Of a stretch of DNA of 64,000 nt, positions 1,771-61,926 are shown piece after piece. The stretch is from positions 36,684 to 100,683 of the forward strand of contig JBKHAV010000001.1 in NCBI GenBank assembly GCA_046542715.1, written 5' to 3'. The notes below the pieces were generated by a model. That model made no database searches and was not told the DNA's origin. It saw only the letters and a list, made by a program, of their open reading frames with translations. The DNA is from Desulfovibrionales bacterium (GTDB taxonomy: Bacteria > Desulfobacterota > Desulfovibrionia > Desulfovibrionales > JBKHAV01). Every line of letters begins with the position of its first letter. The first letter of the stretch is position 1. The translations under genes and the position numbers were made by a program.

Positions 1771-1816
1771 TTCGGTTCTTTGTTTCGAATTTCGGGATTC
1801 GGTTTTCGAATTTTTT
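1771..1816. repeat. 8-nt-periodic TTCGAA/TTTCG low-complexity array (family member A)
   Basis: Sequence ttcggttctttgtttcgaatttcgggattcggttttcgaatttttt lies 10 nt downstream of the minus-strand stop at 1827-1829. Confidence 0.7.
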
Positions 1817-35560: not shown

Positions 35561-35610
35561 GCCTGCTTGCTGTTTCCTGTTTCCTGTTTGCTGTTTCCTG
35601 CTTGCGTGCT
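35561..35610. repeat. 7-nt-periodic GTTTCCT/GTTTGCT array (right arm), abutting the argJ stop
   Basis: Sequence gcctgcttgctgtttcctgtttcctgtttgctgtttcctgcttgcgtgct ends at 35610. The argJ stop codon is 35611-35613. Confidence 0.8.
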
Positions 35611-36792
35611 TTACGTCCTGTACTCCGCGTTGATGCGCACGTATTCGTGGGTCAAATCAGAGGTAAGCAGGGTGTAGTGGCCTGTTCCCTCCCGCAGGTC
35701 CACATGGATTTCGATATCCTTGCGGGAGAGATAGACGGCGAAAACCGCATCTCTGTCCATGGCAACGGGGCGGCCATGGCTGAATATCAAAATATTTGCC
35801 AGCCGGATTTGTACCCGGTCCGGATCAAAAGCCGCTCCGCTTCGTCCCAGGGCGGCCACGATTCGGCCCCAGTTCGGGTCCTGACCGAACATTGCCGTCT
35901 TGACCAGGGGTGAGTGGCCGATGGTCCGGGCCGCTCTTTCCGCATCCCGGTCGTCAACGCCACCGGTGACCCTGATGGTCACCACTTTGGTTCCACCCTC
36001 GGCATCCTGGACGATACGATAGGAAAGCTCCCGGCACACCGCGACGAGACCGTGTCTGAGAGACTCCCGGCTCTCCCCTGTGGCGTTCACCCTTGAGGCG
36101 CTGTTTGCCAGCCCGATCACACAGTCGTTCGTGCTGGTGTCGCCGTCAACGGTCACGGCATTGAAGCTTTTGTCCACGGCCTGTGCAATCGTTTCCTGCC
36201 ACCAGGAACGGTCCACATCTGCATCGCACAGCACGAACCCGAGCATGGTCGCCATATTCGGGCAGATCATGCCCGCCCCTTTGGCCATGCCCAGGATGGT
36301 GATCTCGCCATCGACCGTTTGGACCGTGCGCCAGACCATCTTCGGGAATGAGTCCGTGGTCATGATCGCCTTGGCTGCGTCCATGGGTGTTTTTTGCCCG
36401 AGGTTTTGGATCAGTGCCGGAACCGCCCGTTCCCACAGTTCCATCTTGAGGTGATCGCCGATGACACCTGTCGACGCCGGAAGGAGGGAACCCGGCTCAA
36501 CACCTAAAGCTTCCGCTGTCATTTGCAGTGTCCTGCGGCAGTCAGCAATACCTTGCGCCCCGGTGCAGGCATTGGCCTGTCCCGCATTGACGAGAATCCC
36601 CCTGAGTCCGGCACCTTCGGACAGAAGTTCCTTGGCCACGATAACCGGCGCGGCCTGAAACCTGTTGGTAGTGAAAACCGCTGCCCCGGCCGCCTCAACA
36701 TCACTGAACAGGAGGGCAAGATCGTCCCTGTTTGTGTATTTGAAACCCGCTTGCGCTGTGGAAAACCGGTAGCCCTTTGGAATCGCGATCAC
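35611..36792 (-). CDS. argJ: Bifunctional glutamate N-acetyltransferase / amino-acid acetyltransferase ArgJ
   Basis: ArgJ signatures include the autoprocessing region ATMLGFVLCDA. A GTG start at 36792 (VIAIPKGYRF) follows AGGAGA. The ORF-track start at 37035 is rejected. Confidence 0.88.
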   Translation of the reverse strand: MIAIPKGYRFSTAQAGFKYTNRDDLALLFSDVEAAGAAVFTTNRFQAAPVIVAKELLSEGAGLRGILVNAGQANACTGAQGIADCRRTLQMTAEALGVEPGSLLPASTGVIGDHLKMELWERAVPALIQNLGQKTPMDAAKAIMTTDSFPKMVWRTVQTVDGEITILGMAKGAGMICPNMATMLGFVLCDADVDRSWWQETIAQAVDKSFNAVTVDGDTSTNDCVIGLANSASRVNATGESRESLRHGLVAVCRELSYRIVQDAEGGTKVVTIRVTGGVDDRDAERAARTIGHSPLVKTAMFGQDPNWGRIVAALGRSGAAFDPDRVQIRLANILIFSHGRPVAMDRDAVFAVYLSRKDIEIHVDLREGTGHYTLLTSDLTHEYVRINAEYRT

Positions 36793-37656: not shown

Positions 37657-37702
37657 AACCAAAATGAAATCAAAACAGCGTTTCCCATGCACCATTCCCA
37701 CT

Positions 37703-37733
37703 AAAAAAGCCCGGAGATCTTCCGGGCTTTTTC
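37703..37733 (-). terminator. Rho-independent terminator of secA
   Basis: The minus strand reads GCCCGGA-agatc-TCCGGGC followed by TTTTTT. Confidence 0.8.
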
Positions 37734-37735
37734 AA

Positions 37736-37811
37736 CGATTCAAAATTCGTTGATTCGTTGATTCGTCAATCCCCCAATTCGGAATTCGCCAATTCACAAC
37801 TCCCCAATTCC
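37736..37811. repeat. Low-complexity GAAT/CAATTC periodic array (family member B) in the secA 3' UTR
   Basis: Sequence cgattcaaaattcgttgattcgttgattcgtcaatcccccaattcggaattcgccaattcacaactccccaattcc directly abuts the secA stop (37812-37814). Confidence 0.7.
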
Positions 37812-40316
37812 TCAATTCCCACAACATTTCTTATGCTTTTTCCCTGAGCCGCAGGGGCAGGGTTCGTTGCGTCCCACCTTGGGGGCGGCTCTCTTGACGG
37901 TCTTGGGTGCCGACGCTTCCGCACTTGCCGAATAGTTGAGCTGTTTGGGCTGATCGTCGTGCTTGAATTCCTCTTCCTCCACCTTCTGGAGTTTCAACCG
38001 GGACAGGGAGCGCAGCGTGTTTTCCTTGATTCTAAAGAGCATGTCCTGGAAAAGTTCGAACCCCTCGCGCTTGTACTCCTGCTTGGGATCCTTTTGCCCG
38101 TACCCCCGCAGCCCGATGCCCTCTTTGAGGTGGTCCATGTTCAGCAGGTGTTCCTTCCAGTTGCGGTCCAGGCTTTCCAGCATGAAAAACCGCAAAATCT
38201 CCGGGTAATGGTCCTGGCTTTCGGATTTGAGGCGGGACAGCGTGGCCTTGATCCGCTCCTGCGCTTCCTCCCGATCCGGCAGGGGGTCGTCCCCATCCTG
38301 GGAAAATCCAAAAGCGAATATTTCGTCGAGCTTGCTCTTGACCATATCTGTCATTTCCGGATCGACTTTGCCCTTGCCGTCTTCGATCGGGGCATAGACC
38401 TCGTCCAGGAGATCGCCGACAAATTCGAGCACCAGATCCTCGAGATTGTCAGATCCCATGACCTCCCGCCGCTGGGAGTAGATGACAGTACGCTGCTGAT
38501 TCATGACGTCGTCATACTCGAGCAGCTGTTTTCTGATTTCGAAGTTGTGTCCTTCCACCCGGCGCTGGGCGTTTTCAATGGCCCGGGAAACCATCTTGTT
38601 TTCAATGGCCTGACCTTCCTCCATGCCCAGTTTTTCCATGAGCCCTGACATACGGTCCGAACCGAAGAGGCGGAGCAGATCGTCATCCATGGCCAGGTAG
38701 AACCGCGAACTCCCCGGATCCCCCTGGCGGCCGGACCGGCCCCGGAGCTGATTGTCGATGCGCCGACTCTCGTGCCGCTCCGTGCCCAGAATATGCAGCC
38801 CCCCTGCCTCCCGCACGCCGTCGCCGAGCACGATGTCCGTACCCCGGCCGGCCATGTTCGTGGCGATGGTCACTTTGCCCTTTTTCCCGGCATCTGCCAC
38901 GATTTCAGCCTCTCGCTCATGGTGCTTGGCGTTGAGCACGTCGTGGGGAACCTTGAGCTTTTTGAGATGCCTGGAGATGAGTTCGGACTTGTCGATGGAG
39001 GTGGTTCCGACCAGAACCGGCTGCCCTTTTTTGTGCAACTCGGTGATGTCCTGGCTGATGGACTCATATTTTTCAGCCTGGGTTCGAAACACGAGATCCG
39101 GATAGTCCTGCCGAATCATGGTCTTGTGCGTGGGGATCACCAGGACGTCGAGATCGTAGATCTGCTTGAATTCCACCGACTCCGTATCAGCGGTACCGGT
39201 CATGCCGGCGAGTTTTTCGTACATGCGAAAATAGTTCTGAAAGGTGATGGAGGCCAGAGTCTGGTTTTCCGCCTCCACCTTGACCCCCTCCTTCGCCTCC
39301 AGGGCCTGGTGCAGACCGTCTGAATACCGCCGTCCCGGCATGAGCCGGCCCGTGAACTCATCCACGATGACCACCTGACCTTCCGTGACGATGTAGTCCA
39401 CATCCACATTGAACAGCTGATGCGCCTTGAGGGCCTGCAGGATATGGTGCTGGACCGTGATATTGCGCGGGTCGAAAAGGTTGTCCACGCCCAGAATTTC
39501 CTCGCACCGGACCACACCGTCGTCGGTCAGGGCCACGGCCTTGGCCTTTTCGTCTACTGTGAAGTCCCGCTCCTTTTTCAAACGGGGGATGATGGAGTTG
39601 ATCTGCACGTAAAGCGACGTGGATTTTTCCCCGGGTCCGGAAATGATAAGTGGCGTTCGAGCTTCGTCGATAAGAATGGAGTCCACTTCGTCCACTATGG
39701 CGAAGTGAAGATCGCGCTGTACGAGCTGCTCGATATAAAATTTCATGTTGTCCCGGAGATAATCGAACCCGAACTCGTTGTTCGTTCCGTAGGTAACGTC
39801 CGAACGGTACGCCTCCTGCCGCTGCTTGTCGTTCAGCCCGTGGACGATCGTGCCCACGGAAAGCCCCAGAAATTGATACAACTGGCCCATCCATTCGGCA
39901 TCTCGACGGGCCAGATAATCGTTGACCGTAATCAGGTGCACCCCTTTGCCGGTCAAGGCATTGAGGACCACGGGCAGGGTGGCCACCAGGGTTTTCCCCT
40001 CGCCGGTTTTCATTTCCGCGATCTTGCCCTGGTGCAGGACCATGCCGCCGATGAGCTGAACGTCGAAATGGCGCATCTGCAACCGGCGCAGGGACGCCTC
40101 CCGAACCAGGGCAAAAACCTCTGGTGCCAGTGAGTCCAGGTTGCGGCCATTGGCCACTTCCTGCTTCCATTGCACAATTTTCGAGGGAAACTCCTCGTCC
40201 TTCAACGCCTTCATCTGTGGTTCGAGGCCGTTGACCTGGTCCACAAAAGGTTGAATGGCCTTGATTTGCCGATCATTTTTCGATCCAAATATTTTTTTCG
40301 CCAGTGCGTTAATCAT
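37812..40316 (-). CDS. secA: Preprotein translocase ATPase SecA
   Basis: 834 aa. Walker [14 protein letters not shown]-like [11 protein letters not shown], and a C-terminal zinc finger [14 protein letters not shown]. Confidence 0.97.
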
Positions 40317-47930: not shown

Positions 47931-49304
47931 CTAGAACCCTTTCCCCGGGTTCATGATGGCGTGAGGATCAAACACCGTTTTGATGCGGTGCATGATTTCG
48001 GTTTGGGCTGATCCAAGCTGCTTGCCGGCCCACCTCTGTTTGATCAGGCCGATCCCATGCTCGCCGGACAGTGTCCCCTCGAGGGACAGGACCAGGTCCA
48101 TGATTCGCTCCTTGGCCGCCGACGCCCTGGTCGCTTCCTCCGCTTGCAAACGATCGTACATGATATTGGTGTGAATGTTGCCGTCCCCGAGGTGGCCGAA
48201 CGTCAAAATGGGCAGCCCGGACTCCCCGGCAATCACCCGGATACCGCGGATGAGTTCGCCGACCCTTCCCCTGGGGACCGTGATGTCCTCGCTCATCTTG
48301 TCCGGCCTGACCCGAAACGATGCCGGGCTGATGAGCCGCCTTATCTCCCAGAGTTCCTCCTCCCGGGCACCCGACCCTGACCGCCGAAAGAGCGGTTTGG
48401 TCCCCGCCAGGACCATATCCAGCCGTTTCTGTTCCTCCAGGAGTTCCTCTTGGCTGCCGTCCTGTTTGAGAAGCAACACCGCACCGGTTTTTTCTGGCCA
48501 CTGGGCCGGGGCGAGTTCCGAAACAGCCGCCAAAACCTCCCTGGTCATGAGTTCCATGGCCACGGGGAGAATACCGGCCCGGAAGACCGCCTCCGCTCCT
48601 TCCAGGGCCTTATCCAGTGTCTCGTAAGCCACAAGAATGGAAGCAGTGGCTTGCGGCAGGGGCAGCAGCTTGAGCGTCACCCTGGTCACCAGGGCCAATG
48701 TCCCTTCGGAACCGACCAGGAGCCGGGTCAGGTCCAGGCCGACCACGTTTTTGTGGCACCGTCCCCCGGTACGGATCACCTCCCCCCCGGGGAGCACCGC
48801 CTCCAGTCCCAGGACATAGTCCCGGGTCACGCCGTACTTGACCGCGCGCATGCCTCCGGCATTGGTCATCACATTGCCGCCGATGGTGGAAAATTTCCCG
48901 CTGGCCGGGTCCGGTGGATAGAAAAGCGATTTTTCAGCCGCCTCCTTCTGGAGCCTGGCCGTAACCACCCCGGGCTCGACAACGGCGATAAAATCGCTGG
49001 CACTGATCTCCACGATCCTGTCCATGTCCAGCATGGAAACCACGACCCCCCCGGAATCCGGCACGCAGCCGCCCACCATGTTCGTGCCCCGCGATCTGGG
49101 GATGATGGGTATCCGCTCCTGATGCGCCCAGGACAGGAGTGAGACGACCTGTTCCAGAGTTTTCGGCCGGACCACGGCCCAGGGCGGGGCAAACCCCCGG
49201 CTGGAATCCGCCCCGAAAACCAGCGTCTCCTCTGTTGAGGTAAGGAAGTCCTTTCCGGGAAAGAGGTCTCTGAGAAATTTCTTTTGGCTTCGGGTCAGAG
49301 TCAA
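47931..49304 (-). CDS. FAD-binding oxidoreductase, GlcD / D-lactate dehydrogenase family
   Basis: FAD_binding_4 motifs (PRSRGTNMVGG, GGMRAVKYGVTRD) and a C-terminal GEHGIG motif. A TTG start at 49304 follows GGAG. The ORF-track N-terminus translates the repeat array and is rejected. Confidence 0.85.
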   Translation of the reverse strand: MTLTRSQKKFLRDLFPGKDFLTSTEETLVFGADSSRGFAPPWAVVRPKTLEQVVSLLSWAHQERIPIIPRSRGTNMVGGCVPDSGGVVVSMLDMDRIVEISASDFIAVVEPGVVTARLQKEAAEKSLFYPPDPASGKFSTIGGNVMTNAGGMRAVKYGVTRDYVLGLEAVLPGGEVIRTGGRCHKNVVGLDLTRLLVGSEGTLALVTRVTLKLLPLPQATASILVAYETLDKALEGAEAVFRAGILPVAMELMTREVLAAVSELAPAQWPEKTGAVLLLKQDGSQEELLEEQKRLDMVLAGTKPLFRRSGSGAREEELWEIRRLISPASFRVRPDKMSEDITVPRGRVGELIRGIRVIAGESGLPILTFGHLGDGNIHTNIMYDRLQAEEATRASAAKERIMDLVLSLEGTLSGEHGIGLIKQRWAGKQLGSAQTEIMHRIKTVFDPHAIMNPGKGF

Positions 49305-49320
49305 ATGAACGCTCCGGGAA

Positions 49321-49377
49321 TCAGAAATCCGAAATTCAAAATTCAAAATCCGAAGCTCGAAATCCGAAATTCGAAAC
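49321..49377. repeat. Left arm: 8-nt-periodic array (CGAAATYC units)
   Basis: Sequence tcagaaatccgaaattcaaaattcaaaatccgaagctcgaaatccgaaattcgaaac is an imperfect reverse complement of the right arm. Confidence 0.8.
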
Positions 49378-49490
49378 AAATGCAGAAGAGACGAAGACTT
49401 CCGACCGAATCAGGTATCAACGAACATCAGCCAGAACATCACCGAAGCCGAATCGGAACTTCTGCCTTTCGGATTTCTGCCTTTCTGTTT

Positions 49491-49581
49491 TGTTTCGAAT
49501 TTCGAATTTCGAATTTCGGATTTCAGATTTCGGATTTCGAATTTCGAATTTCTCTTTTCATTTTGAATTTCGAATTTCTCT
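49491..49581. repeat. Right arm: 8-nt-periodic TTCGAA array abutting the smpB stop
   Basis: Sequence tgtttcgaatttcgaatttcgaatttcggatttcagatttcggatttcgaatttcgaatttc... carries six TTCGAA palindromes in 8-bp phase. The smpB stop is 49582-49584. Confidence 0.85.
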
Positions 49582-50040
49582 TCATTTGTACCTGGCTATC
49601 TCTCTGGCAGTATCCCGTTCCACGGCACGTCGCTTGAGTTCTTCGCGGCGGTCATGGACCTTCATGCCTTTGGCCAGGGCAATCTCGACCTTGATGCGCC
49701 CGCCCTTGAGGTAGATCTTTGTAGGGACAACGGTCAGCCCCTTTTGCTCCACCCTGCTCATCAGTCTTTCGATTTCCCGGCCGTGCAGCAGGAGCTTTTT
49801 GTCCCGGTCCGGATCATGCCCGCTGGGGCCGGCCTGCTCGTACGGGGAAATATGCACCCCCGAAAGATAGGCCTCCCCCCCTGTGAAGCGGACATGGCTG
49901 TCCTGGAAACTCACTTTGCCGGCTCTGGCCGATTTGACTTCCGACCCTTTGAGAACGAGGCCGGCTTCCAAAAATTCCAGAAACTCGTACTGGGCCCTGG
50001 CTTTTTTGTTCTGCGCGATGATCTTGATGCCTGTGGACAT
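49582..50040 (-). CDS. smpB: SsrA-binding protein SmpB
   Basis: 152 aa, [30 protein letters not shown]...KLLLHGREI. Confidence 0.95.
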
Positions 50041-60439: not shown

Positions 60440-60487
60440 AACCACCTCTTAATCCGAGTCAAACCAAGATTTAAACTTCTTCTCTTC

Positions 60488-60523
60488 GTTTCGAATTTCG
60501 TATTTCGAGTTTCGAATTTCGTT
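60488..60523. repeat. 8-nt-periodic TTCGAA array (family member D)
   Basis: Sequence gtttcgaatttcgtatttcgagtttcgaatttcgtt lies 2 nt from the stop (60526-60528) of the bEBP gene. Confidence 0.75.
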
Positions 60524-60525
60524 CC

Positions 60526-61926
60526 TCAAGGAATATCCATCCCCTGTTTCCGATACTCGTTGAGCTTGTTGCGGAGGGTGCGCACGGATATCCCCAGGAG
60601 CTGCGATGCCTGTGTCCTGTTGCCTTCGGTATGGTCCAGGCTTTTCATGATCATTTTCTGTTCCATGACATGCAAGGGAACAAGCTCCATGGCATCCTCG
60701 GCGGCAACAGCGATTCCCTGCCCCCCATTGCCGGTCCCTTCCACCCCGAGTTCACCTTCCGGAAGCCATTGTCCATCCTCGATCAAAAAATGCCTCGGCT
60801 GCACAGGACCCTTTCCGGCGAGGAGCACGGCGCGCTCCATGAGGTTTTGCAGCTCCCGGACATTTCCAGGCCATGAATACTCAAGCAGCCACTGTCTCGC
60901 GTCTGCGCCAAGCTCCAGAGGTGCAAGCCCGTACTCCCGGCAGTATCGCCGAATAAAAAAACCGGCCAGGGGAAGGATGTCCTCTTTGCGCTCCCGAAGC
61001 GGGGGCAGCTTGATGGGGATCACGTTCAACCTGTAATAGAGGTCCTGCCGGAAGTTGCCCTGTTCCACGGACTCTTCCAGATTGCGGTTCGTGGTGGCCA
61101 GCACCCTGACGTCCACGGGAATGGTCTCTGTTCCGCCAACCCGGTCGATCTCCCCTTCCTGCAGGACCCGCAGGAGCTTGGCCTGCAGCCCGATATCCAT
61201 CTCTGAAATTTCGTCCAGGAGAATCGTTCCCCTGGCGGCGAGTTCGAATCGTCCCGGCTTTCTGCTGACAGCTCCGGTAAAAGCCCCTTTTTCATGACCG
61301 AAAAGCTCGCTCTCCAGCAGATGCTCTGGAAGCGCGGCGCAGTTGATGGCGATGAAGGGACCCTTTTCTCTGGGGCTGTGGCCGTGGACATAGCGGGCGA
61401 TCATTTCCTTCCCGGTGCCGGACTCTCCGGAAATGAGCACCGTGGCCTTGGACGGGGCGATCTGCCGGGCCAGGGCAAGCACCCGCTGCATGACGGGATG
61501 CTCGGCAATGATGGTGTGATCTTTCTTCGGGGGGGTGGTTTGCCGGGGGGGTGCAGGCTCGGCCCGGCTCGGGAGCACGGTCGCCATTTTTTCCCAGGTG
61601 AGCGGAGTGAGCCAGTAATCCTTGGCGCCCATTTCCATCAGCCGCTGTGCTTCACTGGCCGAACCCTGCCGGGTGCATACCACGACAGGCGGAAATGCCT
61701 CGGTTCCGTTCGCCTCCTTGAGCAGGGAGTCGACTCTGTACCCCGGAAGCGCCGCCTGGGAGAAGACGAGCGCAGGCCTGCTCTTCTGAATGTAGTGGAG
61801 GGCTCCCTGCAGACTGTCTGCTAGTCCCACATCGATCTGCTCCTCCCTGAACCGGGTGATGAGATCGGTGATTTCCTCCGACCGGCCCACAAAGAGGATG
61901 GTCAATCGTGACATAGCCCTGCTCAT
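60526..61926 (-). CDS. Sigma54-dependent transcriptional activator (NtrC family) with a degenerate receiver domain
   Basis: AAA+ Walker A GESGTGKE, the GAFTGA loop, and a C-terminal Fis-type HTH NRTQASQLLGISVRTLRNKL. The N-terminal REC-like domain lacks the conserved acidic residues. Start options are 61926, 61914 and 61992. Confidence 0.85.
   Translation of the reverse strand: MSRAMSRLTILFVGRSEEITDLITRFREEQIDVGLADSLQGALHYIQKSRPALVFSQAALPGYRVDSLLKEANGTEAFPPVVVCTRQGSASEAQRLMEMGAKDYWLTPLTWEKMATVLPSRAEPAPPRQTTPPKKDHTIIAEHPVMQRVLALARQIAPSKATVLISGESGTGKEMIARYVHGHSPREKGPFIAINCAALPEHLLESELFGHEKGAFTGAVSRKPGRFELAARGTILLDEISEMDIGLQAKLLRVLQEGEIDRVGGTETIPVDVRVLATTNRNLEESVEQGNFRQDLYYRLNVIPIKLPPLRERKEDILPLAGFFIRRYCREYGLAPLELGADARQWLLEYSWPGNVRELQNLMERAVLLAGKGPVQPRHFLIEDGQWLPEGELGVEGTGNGGQGIAVAAEDAMELVPLHVMEQKMIMKSLDHTEGNRTQASQLLGISVRTLRNKLNEYRKQGMDIP

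Follow-up and report, generated by a model that had tools for sequence, protein, structure and literature searches.

An inverted pair of heptanucleotide arrays between smpB and a glcD-like gene in a Desulfovibrionales bacterium, a candidate transcribed fold-out hairpin

In a 64,000-nucleotide stretch of contig JBKHAV010000001.1 from an uncultured Desulfovibrionales bacterium (the whole stretch analysed here, hereafter the window), smpB is separated from a glcD-like gene by two opposed tandem arrays of the heptanucleotide TTTCGAA/TTTCGGA with a unique core between them, referred to below as the smpB element. The smpB gene (49582–50040, minus strand) is taken from the list of open reading frames (ORFs) and encodes a protein of 152 aa, with its TGA stop codon at plus-strand positions 49582–49584; PF01668 is assigned to it on a near-identical contig of a metagenome-assembled genome (MAG), and its homologues are named SsrA-binding protein. 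The following gene (47931–49316, minus strand) encodes a glcD-like FAD-linked oxidase with a GGAG Shine-Dalgarno sequence at 49315–49312 and a TTG start codon at 49304–49302, and from the equivalent start in the same-species contigs L001 and L009 it is called as a protein of 457 aa with PF01565 and PF02913. The spacer between the two genes is 277 nt long and is filled almost wholly by the two arrays and the core.

The smpB-proximal arm, 5′ in the message (49491–49581, minus strand), reads (GAAAUUC/GAAAUCC)n in the mRNA sense and lies 0 nt from the smpB stop codon, in agreement with a first-pass annotation of this DNA, which had placed its beginning one base past that stop. Tandem Repeats Finder (TRF) returns this array at 49493–49578 with a period of 7, the unit TTTCGAA, 12.6 copies and 82% matches, and it is laid out as eight in-phase heptamers (49494–49549), an 8-nt interruption and a further 2.7 units (49560–49578). 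The six TTCGAA sites reported earlier were all located (49494, 49501, 49508, 49536, 49543 and 49569), but their spacings are 7, 7, 28, 7 and 26, so that the 8-bp period ascribed to them was a miscount, and the strict phase does not hold either, the sixth site falling outside it. The glcD-proximal arm, 3′ in the message (49319–49377, minus strand), which is delimited by TRF together with inverted-repeat pairs, reads (UUUCGAA/UUUCGGA)n in the mRNA sense over 8.3 units; TRF gives it at 49319–49376 with a period of 7, the unit AATCCGA and 8.3 copies. This arm opens with TTTG-TTTCGAA-TTTCGGA-TTTCGAG, the beginning of a module shared with other arrays, and it stops 16 nt short of the TTG codon and 5 nt short of the GGAG Shine-Dalgarno sequence. 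That the arms are imperfect reverse complements of each other was likewise correct (82–83% complementary over 54–62 nt).

The core (49378–49490, minus strand; 113–115 nt) forms the loop region of the predicted hairpin and is unique in sequence: blastn against the window and some 270 loci returned no second copy, same-species assemblies excepted. It contains the previously noted direct repeat TTCTGCCTTTC at 49460–49470 and 49476–49486, as well as inner extensions of the inverted repeat (AAATGCAGAAG / CTTCTGCCTTT). The heptamer repeats of this spacer are real and far beyond chance, as the pattern TTCGRATTTCGRA with at most one mismatch occurs 21 times in the window where 0.67 matches would be expected, and 0 of 100 shuffles reached 21.

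Orthologous ptsI-smpB-glcD loci were fetched from the relatives L003, L006, L131, L133, L134 and L135 for the comparison of spacers which the first-pass annotation had proposed. The window, L003 and L131, in a clade with about 81–88% identity of PtsI and SmpB, carry the paired element; it is absent from L006, L134 and L135, which have plain spacers of 16, 38 and 22 nt, respectively, and the arrays of L133 differ in kind. The tree of concatenated PtsI and SmpB, (window,(L131,(L003,L006))), nests L006 among carriers of the element, which is thus ancestral to this clade and was cleanly lost in L006. In L003 and L131 the arms have about 4–5 units and the same orientation as in the window, A-rich on the smpB side and T-rich on the glcD side in the mRNA sense, and in all three species they begin 0–8 nt past the stop codon and end 5–10 nt before the Shine-Dalgarno sequence. 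Conservation of the arms is recognisable, with the 3′ arm the best alignable, whereas the core cannot be aligned and differs in both sequence and length (113 nt in the window, about 150 nt in L003 and about 48 nt in L131). A GAATATC variant in the 5′ arm of L003 and L131 is mirrored by GGTATTC / GATATTC in the 3′ arm, and in L003 the variant and its counterpart stand in the same register; both sides of the pair have therefore changed there. Within the species, the spacer of L001 has two substitutions and that of L009 is additionally one base shorter just past the stop codon; the unit number is the same in the three near-identical assemblies, and the arms range from 4 to 12 units across species. 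An inversion of the core between the window and L003, suggested by CTGCCTTT motifs, was rejected, as alignment in the same orientation gives the better score (103 vs 82) and the 3′ arms are readily aligned.

In the mRNA sense, the spacer of the window (a region of 291 nt) is predicted to fold into a single long hairpin of 107 base pairs at −106.2 kcal/mol (z = −5.67, no shuffle being as stable), which bears out the long imperfect hairpin suggested by the first-pass annotation, and the orthologous spacer of L003 gives a hairpin with 34 consecutive arm pairs (z = −3.4). The sense strand folds better than the antisense strand in both species (−106.2 vs −94.5 kcal/mol in the window and −72.2 vs −55.0 kcal/mol in L003), a weak hint in these models of a constraint at the RNA level. 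No relevant RNA family was recognised, as the sole window match in Rfam at the gathering threshold is a tRNA elsewhere and a permissive search gave only miRNA-precursor-like hairpins far below threshold. Neither a sigma-70-like promoter nor an intrinsic-terminator-like site was found on either strand of 49200–49700, where an intrinsic terminator, with its short GC-rich stem-loop and U run, was also considered as an identity for the element and rejected. The smpB and glcD-like genes nearly abut in relatives lacking the element (16–38 nt apart), and from this their co-transcription can soundly be inferred; the earlier view that the unit lies within a co-directional spacer and would hence be transcribed is accordingly retained.

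In the predicted minimum-free-energy structure the octamer CAAAUGAA at the end of smpB, which includes the UGA stop, pairs with the octamer UUCAUUUG over the UUG start of the glcD-like gene, and this would allow a form of translational coupling or attenuation in which the latter is translated only when the ribosome finishing smpB melts the stem. The placement of the arms in all three species, from just past the stop to just before the Shine-Dalgarno sequence, would suit such coupling, but it seems highly unlikely to be what the element does, as neither L003 nor L131 keeps the pairing of stop and start, the predicted fold leaves the Shine-Dalgarno sequence itself unpaired, and relatives function with a plain 16–38-nt spacer.

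The first-pass annotation had left room for arrays confined to this one locus; heptamer arrays also occur at 1783–1816 and 60489–60521, giving three loci of the TTTCGRA type in 64 kb, all of them intergenic. The array at 60489–60521 (minus strand) is a single copy of a four-unit module (plus strand TTTCGAA TTTCGTA TTTCGAG TTTCGAA TTTCG), located in a co-directional spacer of 80 nt (60446–60525), where it lies 4 nt past the stop codon (60526–60528) of a minus-strand gene. The one at 1783–1816 (minus strand) is a degenerate single copy about 10 nt past the stop codon (1827–1829) of a minus-strand gene encoding 798 aa, upstream of a terminator-like site composed of a hairpin and a T run (about 1695–1725). 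The module has a consensus of about 32 nt and approximately four heptanucleotides, TTTG-TTTCGAA-TTTCGGA-TTTCGAG-TTTCGAA-TTTT, and in the alignment the GAG variant in its third unit is common to the 60489 array, the glcD-proximal arm of the window and the orthologous arms of two other species. As the order of the units is shared, and not the unit alone, the arrays are copies of one module of about 32 nt rather than independent products of slippage. Single four-unit modules are predicted to fold only weakly (−7 to −10 kcal/mol, z between −1 and −2.6).

Each of the five short-period arrays of the window starts 0–10 nt past the stop codon of a minus-strand gene, on its downstream side. An array of CCTGTTT in 5.6 copies (35562–35605) ends 5 nt from the stop codon (35611–35613) of a 474-aa minus-strand gene and constitutes a second heptamer family within the same genome. 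The 8-nt arrays at 37745–37821, ATTCGTTG in 2.8 copies followed by CAATTCCC-like units in 7 copies, overlap the stop codon (37812–37814) of an 834-aa minus-strand gene, and a terminator-like site with a hairpin and a T run (about 37700–37740) adjoins them. Two Logan contigs of the same organism, L002 (998 nt) and L010 (997 nt), show that short-read assemblies break in the smpB-proximal array, which is consistent with a multi-copy repeat in the genome.

A scan with TTCGRATTTCGRATTTCGRA, taking one genome per species, found at least 120 contigs with TTTCGRA arrays. Among the matches listed, to which the cross-phylum counts given below also refer, these contigs belong to Verrucomicrobiota, Acidobacteriota, Planctomycetota, Chloroflexota, Bacteroidota, candidate phyla, Thermodesulfovibrionales and others, and period 7 dominates the tandem repeats of the matched loci, with many other heptamers beside TTTCGGA. 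Exactly four units, or about 32 nt with partial units, make up 120 of 201 arrays (60%; L011–L130), a fixed length which is not predicted by simple slippage, and across the approximately 201 arrays no sequence conservation was found outside the TTTCGGA/TTTCGAA arrays themselves. Inverted complementary pairs number 86, or 83 when the window pair and its two same-species copies are left aside, with gaps mostly of 12–120 nt. In a Chloroflexia MAG (L059, 2560–4030), direct reading of a ribosomal-protein operon (L29, S17, L14, L24 and the following genes) reveals a hairpin pair in each of four consecutive spacers. These hairpins are near-perfect, consist of two arrays of about 3–5 heptamers (AATTCTT/AATTAAG, GAATTTA, TTTTAGG) with loops of 11–19 nt, begin 0–5 nt past the stop codon and end shortly before the next start, and TRF indicates further pairs along the operon. 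Hairpin pairs are thus compatible with co-transcription, since a ribosomal-protein operon carries them in successive spacers.

As a control unbiased towards arrays, 1.08 Mb of metagenome loci were chosen by SmpB alone (the closest at 67% identity, with no near relatives), and only a few lineages among them, mostly cyanobacteria-like, have long heptamer arrays, in agreement with the literature. In the cyanobacteria-like SmpB loci L140–L148 (e.g. L145, 11978–12072), TCAGTTA (= TAACTGA) varies from 2.6 to 13.6 copies at one orthologous site; such variation is classical slippage behaviour, which the TTTCGRA arrays do not show.

The pattern is also borne by 44 viral contigs, in none of which a four-helix-bundle gene was found adjacent to the arrays. 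In the (pro)viral contigs L229, L235, L243 and L245, four-unit UCCGAAA arrays fill the stop-to-start spacers up to the ATG, sometimes without a Shine-Dalgarno sequence; in their A-rich sense they are predicted to be unstructured (0 kcal/mol) and might serve as an open leader for translation initiation.

Heptanucleotide repeats have reportedly been known since 1990, and their place as the commonest long simple repeats of prokaryotes is said to have been established in 2007. The literature consulted puts them first in abundance among such repeats and describes them as lineage-specific and without established function (PMC4679880, PMC4692102, PMC2700814), and those on record include the cyanobacterial short tandemly repeated repetitive (STRR) sequences, GGGAATC of Xanthomonas and GGGGAYT of Nostoc (PMC4692102), and TAACTGA of Beggiatoaceae (PMC4679880). 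Repeats of the STRR type resemble the smpB element in having units of 7 nt repeated in tandem from a few times up to a dozen, an intergenic position, many loci per genome, lineage specificity and sometimes an arrangement in inverted pairs, whereas the arrays described here differ in being module copies with a fixed order of units. TAACTGA repeats have stop codons within them and are located ahead of start codons, neither of which is true of the smpB element, and repeats of the GGGAATC type form G-quadruplexes, which the smpB element does not. No description of the TTTCGAA/TTTCGGA unit was found in the literature searched. From its sequence features, the smpB element can be classed as a lineage-specific, STRR-like member of the known heptanucleotide simple-sequence repeats of prokaryotes. 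The earlier statement that no described repeat family has this composition therefore stands only in part: the element is neither a classical miniature inverted-repeat transposable element (MITE) nor a clustered regularly interspaced short palindromic repeat (CRISPR) array, is probably not a repetitive extragenic palindromic (REP) sequence or bacterial interspersed mosaic element (BIME), and has no Rfam match, but heptanucleotide tandem repeats, inverted pairs included, are an already described class.

By analogy, the closest experimentally studied architecture would be the intervening sequence (IVS) of rRNA, which is found in Coxiella, Leptospira, Salmonella and others, with or without an ORF for an S23p/four-helix-bundle protein, and has a dispensable core; in Coxiella it has a 28-bp terminal stem, which RNase III cuts in the middle (PMC4990558). 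IVSs are transcribed inside their host RNA and tolerated through folding out as a hairpin, to which the smpB element, if transcribed as proposed, may be likened, and both are sporadically present and absent among related species. The terminal stem of at least about 28 bp around a dispensable core also has its counterpart here, in the arms of 54–62 nt and the loss in L006. IVSs lie in helices of 23S or 16S rRNA, whereas the smpB element lies in an mRNA spacer, and cleavage by RNase III, which is demonstrated for IVSs, is only presumed for the latter. IVS stems are not known to consist of heptamer arrays.

The reading preferred here, with a probability of roughly one half, is that the smpB element is a palindromic intercistronic element acting by analogy as a transcribed fold-out hairpin, most likely cut by RNase III, in the smpB-glcD mRNA. 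Two expanded inverted copies of the module with a unique core would have been inserted into the smpB-glcD spacer of about 16–40 nt in the ancestor of a small Desulfovibrionales clade, and the element would since be transcribed within a ptsI-smpB-glcD message. Pairing of the arms would loop out the 260-nt insertion and bring the smpB stop codon next to the Shine-Dalgarno sequence and start of the glcD-like gene again, and insertions of this kind may be tolerated, even in ribosomal-protein operons, because the hairpin restores the proximity of stop and ribosome-binding site. The long double-stranded stem would then be cut by RNase III, in analogy to rRNA IVSs and the intercistronic hairpins of phage T7, and after cleavage the smpB mRNA could retain a stem protecting its 3′ end, while the smpB and glcD mRNAs could differ in stability independently of each other.

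Several observations weigh against this hairpin function. The L131 element forms a hairpin which is no more stable than shuffles (z = −0.9), and the difference in energy between sense and antisense strands could come from composition. Its clean loss in L006 indicates that the element is dispensable, and the spacer of L133 (3475–3803; SmpB 72% identical) carries arrays which are non-complementary, (AGGATGA)x5–6 directly after the stop codon and (CAATCAAC)x6 before the next gene, so that a hairpin is not required for arrays in that spacer. The conservation of the arms could likewise reflect slippage and palindrome-templated homogenisation rather than selection. Both the loss in L006 and the different array pair of L133 in the same spacer favour the main rival explanation, which is possible though not probable, namely that the element is neutral or selfish DNA without an RNA function: slippage would spread the arrays, template switching would copy between the arms of the quasi-palindrome, and the products would survive only in the non-essential bases between a stop codon and a ribosome-binding site or terminator. 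The start of all five arrays of the window so close to stop codons is expected if the neutral zones are tiny, the range in copy number at the orthologous cyanobacterial site also fits, and slippage, which is said to favour 7-nt units, is invoked for such repeats in PMC4679880 and PMC4692102. The smpB element may thus be mainly selfish or neutral, but pure slippage leaves unexplained the unit order which the module shares across loci, the sharp peak at four units across phyla, and the arms which are kept at about 81% protein identity while the core decays.

The proximity to stop codons was itself considered as evidence of function and discounted, since the ancestral spacer is only 16–38 nt long and any insertion in it adjoins a stop codon. 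Across phyla, 37 of 203 arrays in the T-rich sense and 18 of 203 in the A-rich sense lie within 10 nt of a stop codon, compared with 181 of 4860 random positions, which spanned all DNA and not intergenic DNA alone. The crude gene calling used is unreliable near arrays, because the arrays are without stop codons and ORFs run through them.

In Geobacter metallireducens, ‘class 3 global regulator binding sites’ consist of 5 × MTYCTGA on opposite strands, and elements of 4 × GGACCGG are also known (PMC2700814). The host belongs to a related sulfate/metal-reducing ‘delta’ lineage, and its sites resemble the smpB element in having 4–5 tandem heptamers each, opposite-strand pairs with a variable gap and a position between operon genes (e.g. 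proB-proA); they differ in the sequence of the unit, and the window has longer arms, expanded to 8 and 12 units. The Geobacter authors proposed that the paired sites are DNA bound by a protein. An array binding a protein as DNA or RNA would accordingly be another explanation for the smpB element, with the heptamer as the site of a multimeric protein, either IHF/HU-like as in the Geobacter proposal or a PF05635 pentamer, and the pair as a bipartite site or cruciform. The recurrence of the identical heptamer TTTCGGA in unrelated phyla at a fixed 4–5 units agrees with this, as does the specific bracketing of PF05635 genes by such arrays, the family including the nucleic-acid-associated Avd protein of diversity-generating retroelements (PMC10053308). 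Protein binding is nevertheless unlikely here, as many unrelated heptamers occur with the same architecture within one genome, neighbouring sites at a 7-bp period do not face the same side of the DNA helix, and no PF05635 gene was found in the window or in related loci totalling about 60 kb. Both protein binding and translational coupling are thus ranked below neutral or selfish DNA.

The link with PF05635 arises from two longer cores between inverted arrays of the TTTCGGA type, which encode PF05635 proteins (E = 1.9e-13 and 2.5e-17); array-bracketed PF05635 genes are located at L067 2668–3134, L020 3446–3897, in L216–L227 and at L228 21566–25112. A tblastn search from the protein side, with one such PF05635 protein against 72,556 plasmids, returned 30 records, and the named matches are all from Cyanobacteria, Chloroflexota and Bacteroidota save one Treponema record, groups which recur among the heptamer-rich lineages found here. 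Twelve plasmid loci were selected on protein similarity alone, and at 11–12 of these 12 the four-helix-bundle gene is flanked at both ends by short-period arrays, mostly of 7-nt units and mutually complementary. In a stretch of 50 kb with 34 genes from pNPUN01 of Nostoc punctiforme, six of the seven heptamer-array sites, one of them inside a gene, lie at or beside the two four-helix-bundle genes and bracket both; arrays on both sides are otherwise found at a single gene, which shares one of them with its four-helix-bundle neighbour. The PF05635 protein NPUN_RS34315 of N. punctiforme has a (GTCGGAG)4 array at its flank. The four-helix-bundle genes appear as inserts between operon genes, such as methyltransferase/HEPN, cas2/cas1 and resistance-nodulation-division (RND) adaptor/RND permease. 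GGATGAA, which may be compared with the AGGATGA of L133, also brackets the four-helix-bundle gene in a Chlorohelix plasmid (L221). No publication linking PF05635 genes with heptamer arrays was found in the literature searched.

No four-helix-bundle gene is present in the window or L001–L010, and a decayed one in the core was rejected, as a hidden Markov model built from eight proteins yields nothing above noise (E > 1) in any of the four cores searched (window, L003, L131 and L133). What ties PF05635 to the smpB element is the shared architecture and the shared heptamer. It is conceivable, though doubtful, that the smpB element is by analogy a cargo-less member of an undescribed class of cross-phylum IVS-like cassettes, which would be bounded by inverted heptamer arrays of about 32 nt and carry PF05635 (S23p/Avd) cargo in their full forms, with the pentamer recognising arrays of 4–5 units for the spread, maintenance or RNA processing of full and empty cassettes alike. 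The proposed relation between PF05635 and the arrays would be analogous to that between the REP-associated tyrosine transposases (RAYTs) and the REP doublets forming hairpins (REPINs).

Taken alone, the smpB locus is one more bacterial heptanucleotide repeat, of a class still without established function. The class could become tractable through the fixed four-unit format of about 32 nt that TTTCGGA/TTTCGAA arrays keep across unrelated phyla, through the hairpin pairs commonly filling operon spacers, a ribosomal-protein operon included, and through the specific bracketing by arrays of PF05635 genes, whose family also occurs in rRNA IVSs and diversity-generating retroelements. If these observations are connected, three puzzles would be joined, i.e. 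heptamer repeats, rRNA intervening sequences and an orphan four-helix-bundle family.

REP/BIME/REPIN sequences of Enterobacteria and Pseudomonas resemble the smpB module in being about 30–35 nt long, dispersed, single or in inverted pairs, and located just past stop codons or between co-transcribed genes, whereas the REP unit is a GC-rich imperfect palindrome and the smpB unit a tandem heptamer array. REP hairpins can stabilise upstream mRNA, as in malE-malF and in the REPIN literature, and REPs are mobilised by RAYT transposases, of which none was seen here, though no search aimed at them was made. MITEs of the Correia, ERIC and RUP types resemble the smpB element in their length of 100–300 bp, terminal inverted repeats, intergenic position and, as presumed for the smpB element, co-transcription, and some of them are RNase III substrates; the smpB element differs in having termini made of tandem repeats and a unique core. 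A MITE was rejected, as there is no target-site duplication, the flanks …AAATGAAGAG / TCTGATTCCCGGAG… having no direct repeat and none appearing in comparison with the empty L006 site, and as the core is unique within the DNA compared. A CRISPR array was rejected because the 7-mers are contiguous without spacers and the two arrays are inverted, and a known RNA family because of the Rfam results at both the gathering and the permissive threshold. CsrA GGA sites, the T-loop of tRNA (TTCGAAT) and GAAnnTTC of the heat-shock-element type were also considered, but none of these fits the unit variants or the spacing.

Elsewhere in the window, a plus-strand tRNA with a long variable arm is located at 1570–1662 (93 nt, 51.9 bits in Rfam). 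It is followed by a stem-loop at 1690–1725 with A and T runs at its sides, which resembles a bidirectional terminator and is apparently shared with the convergent 798-aa gene, whose 3′ untranslated region holds the 1783–1816 array.

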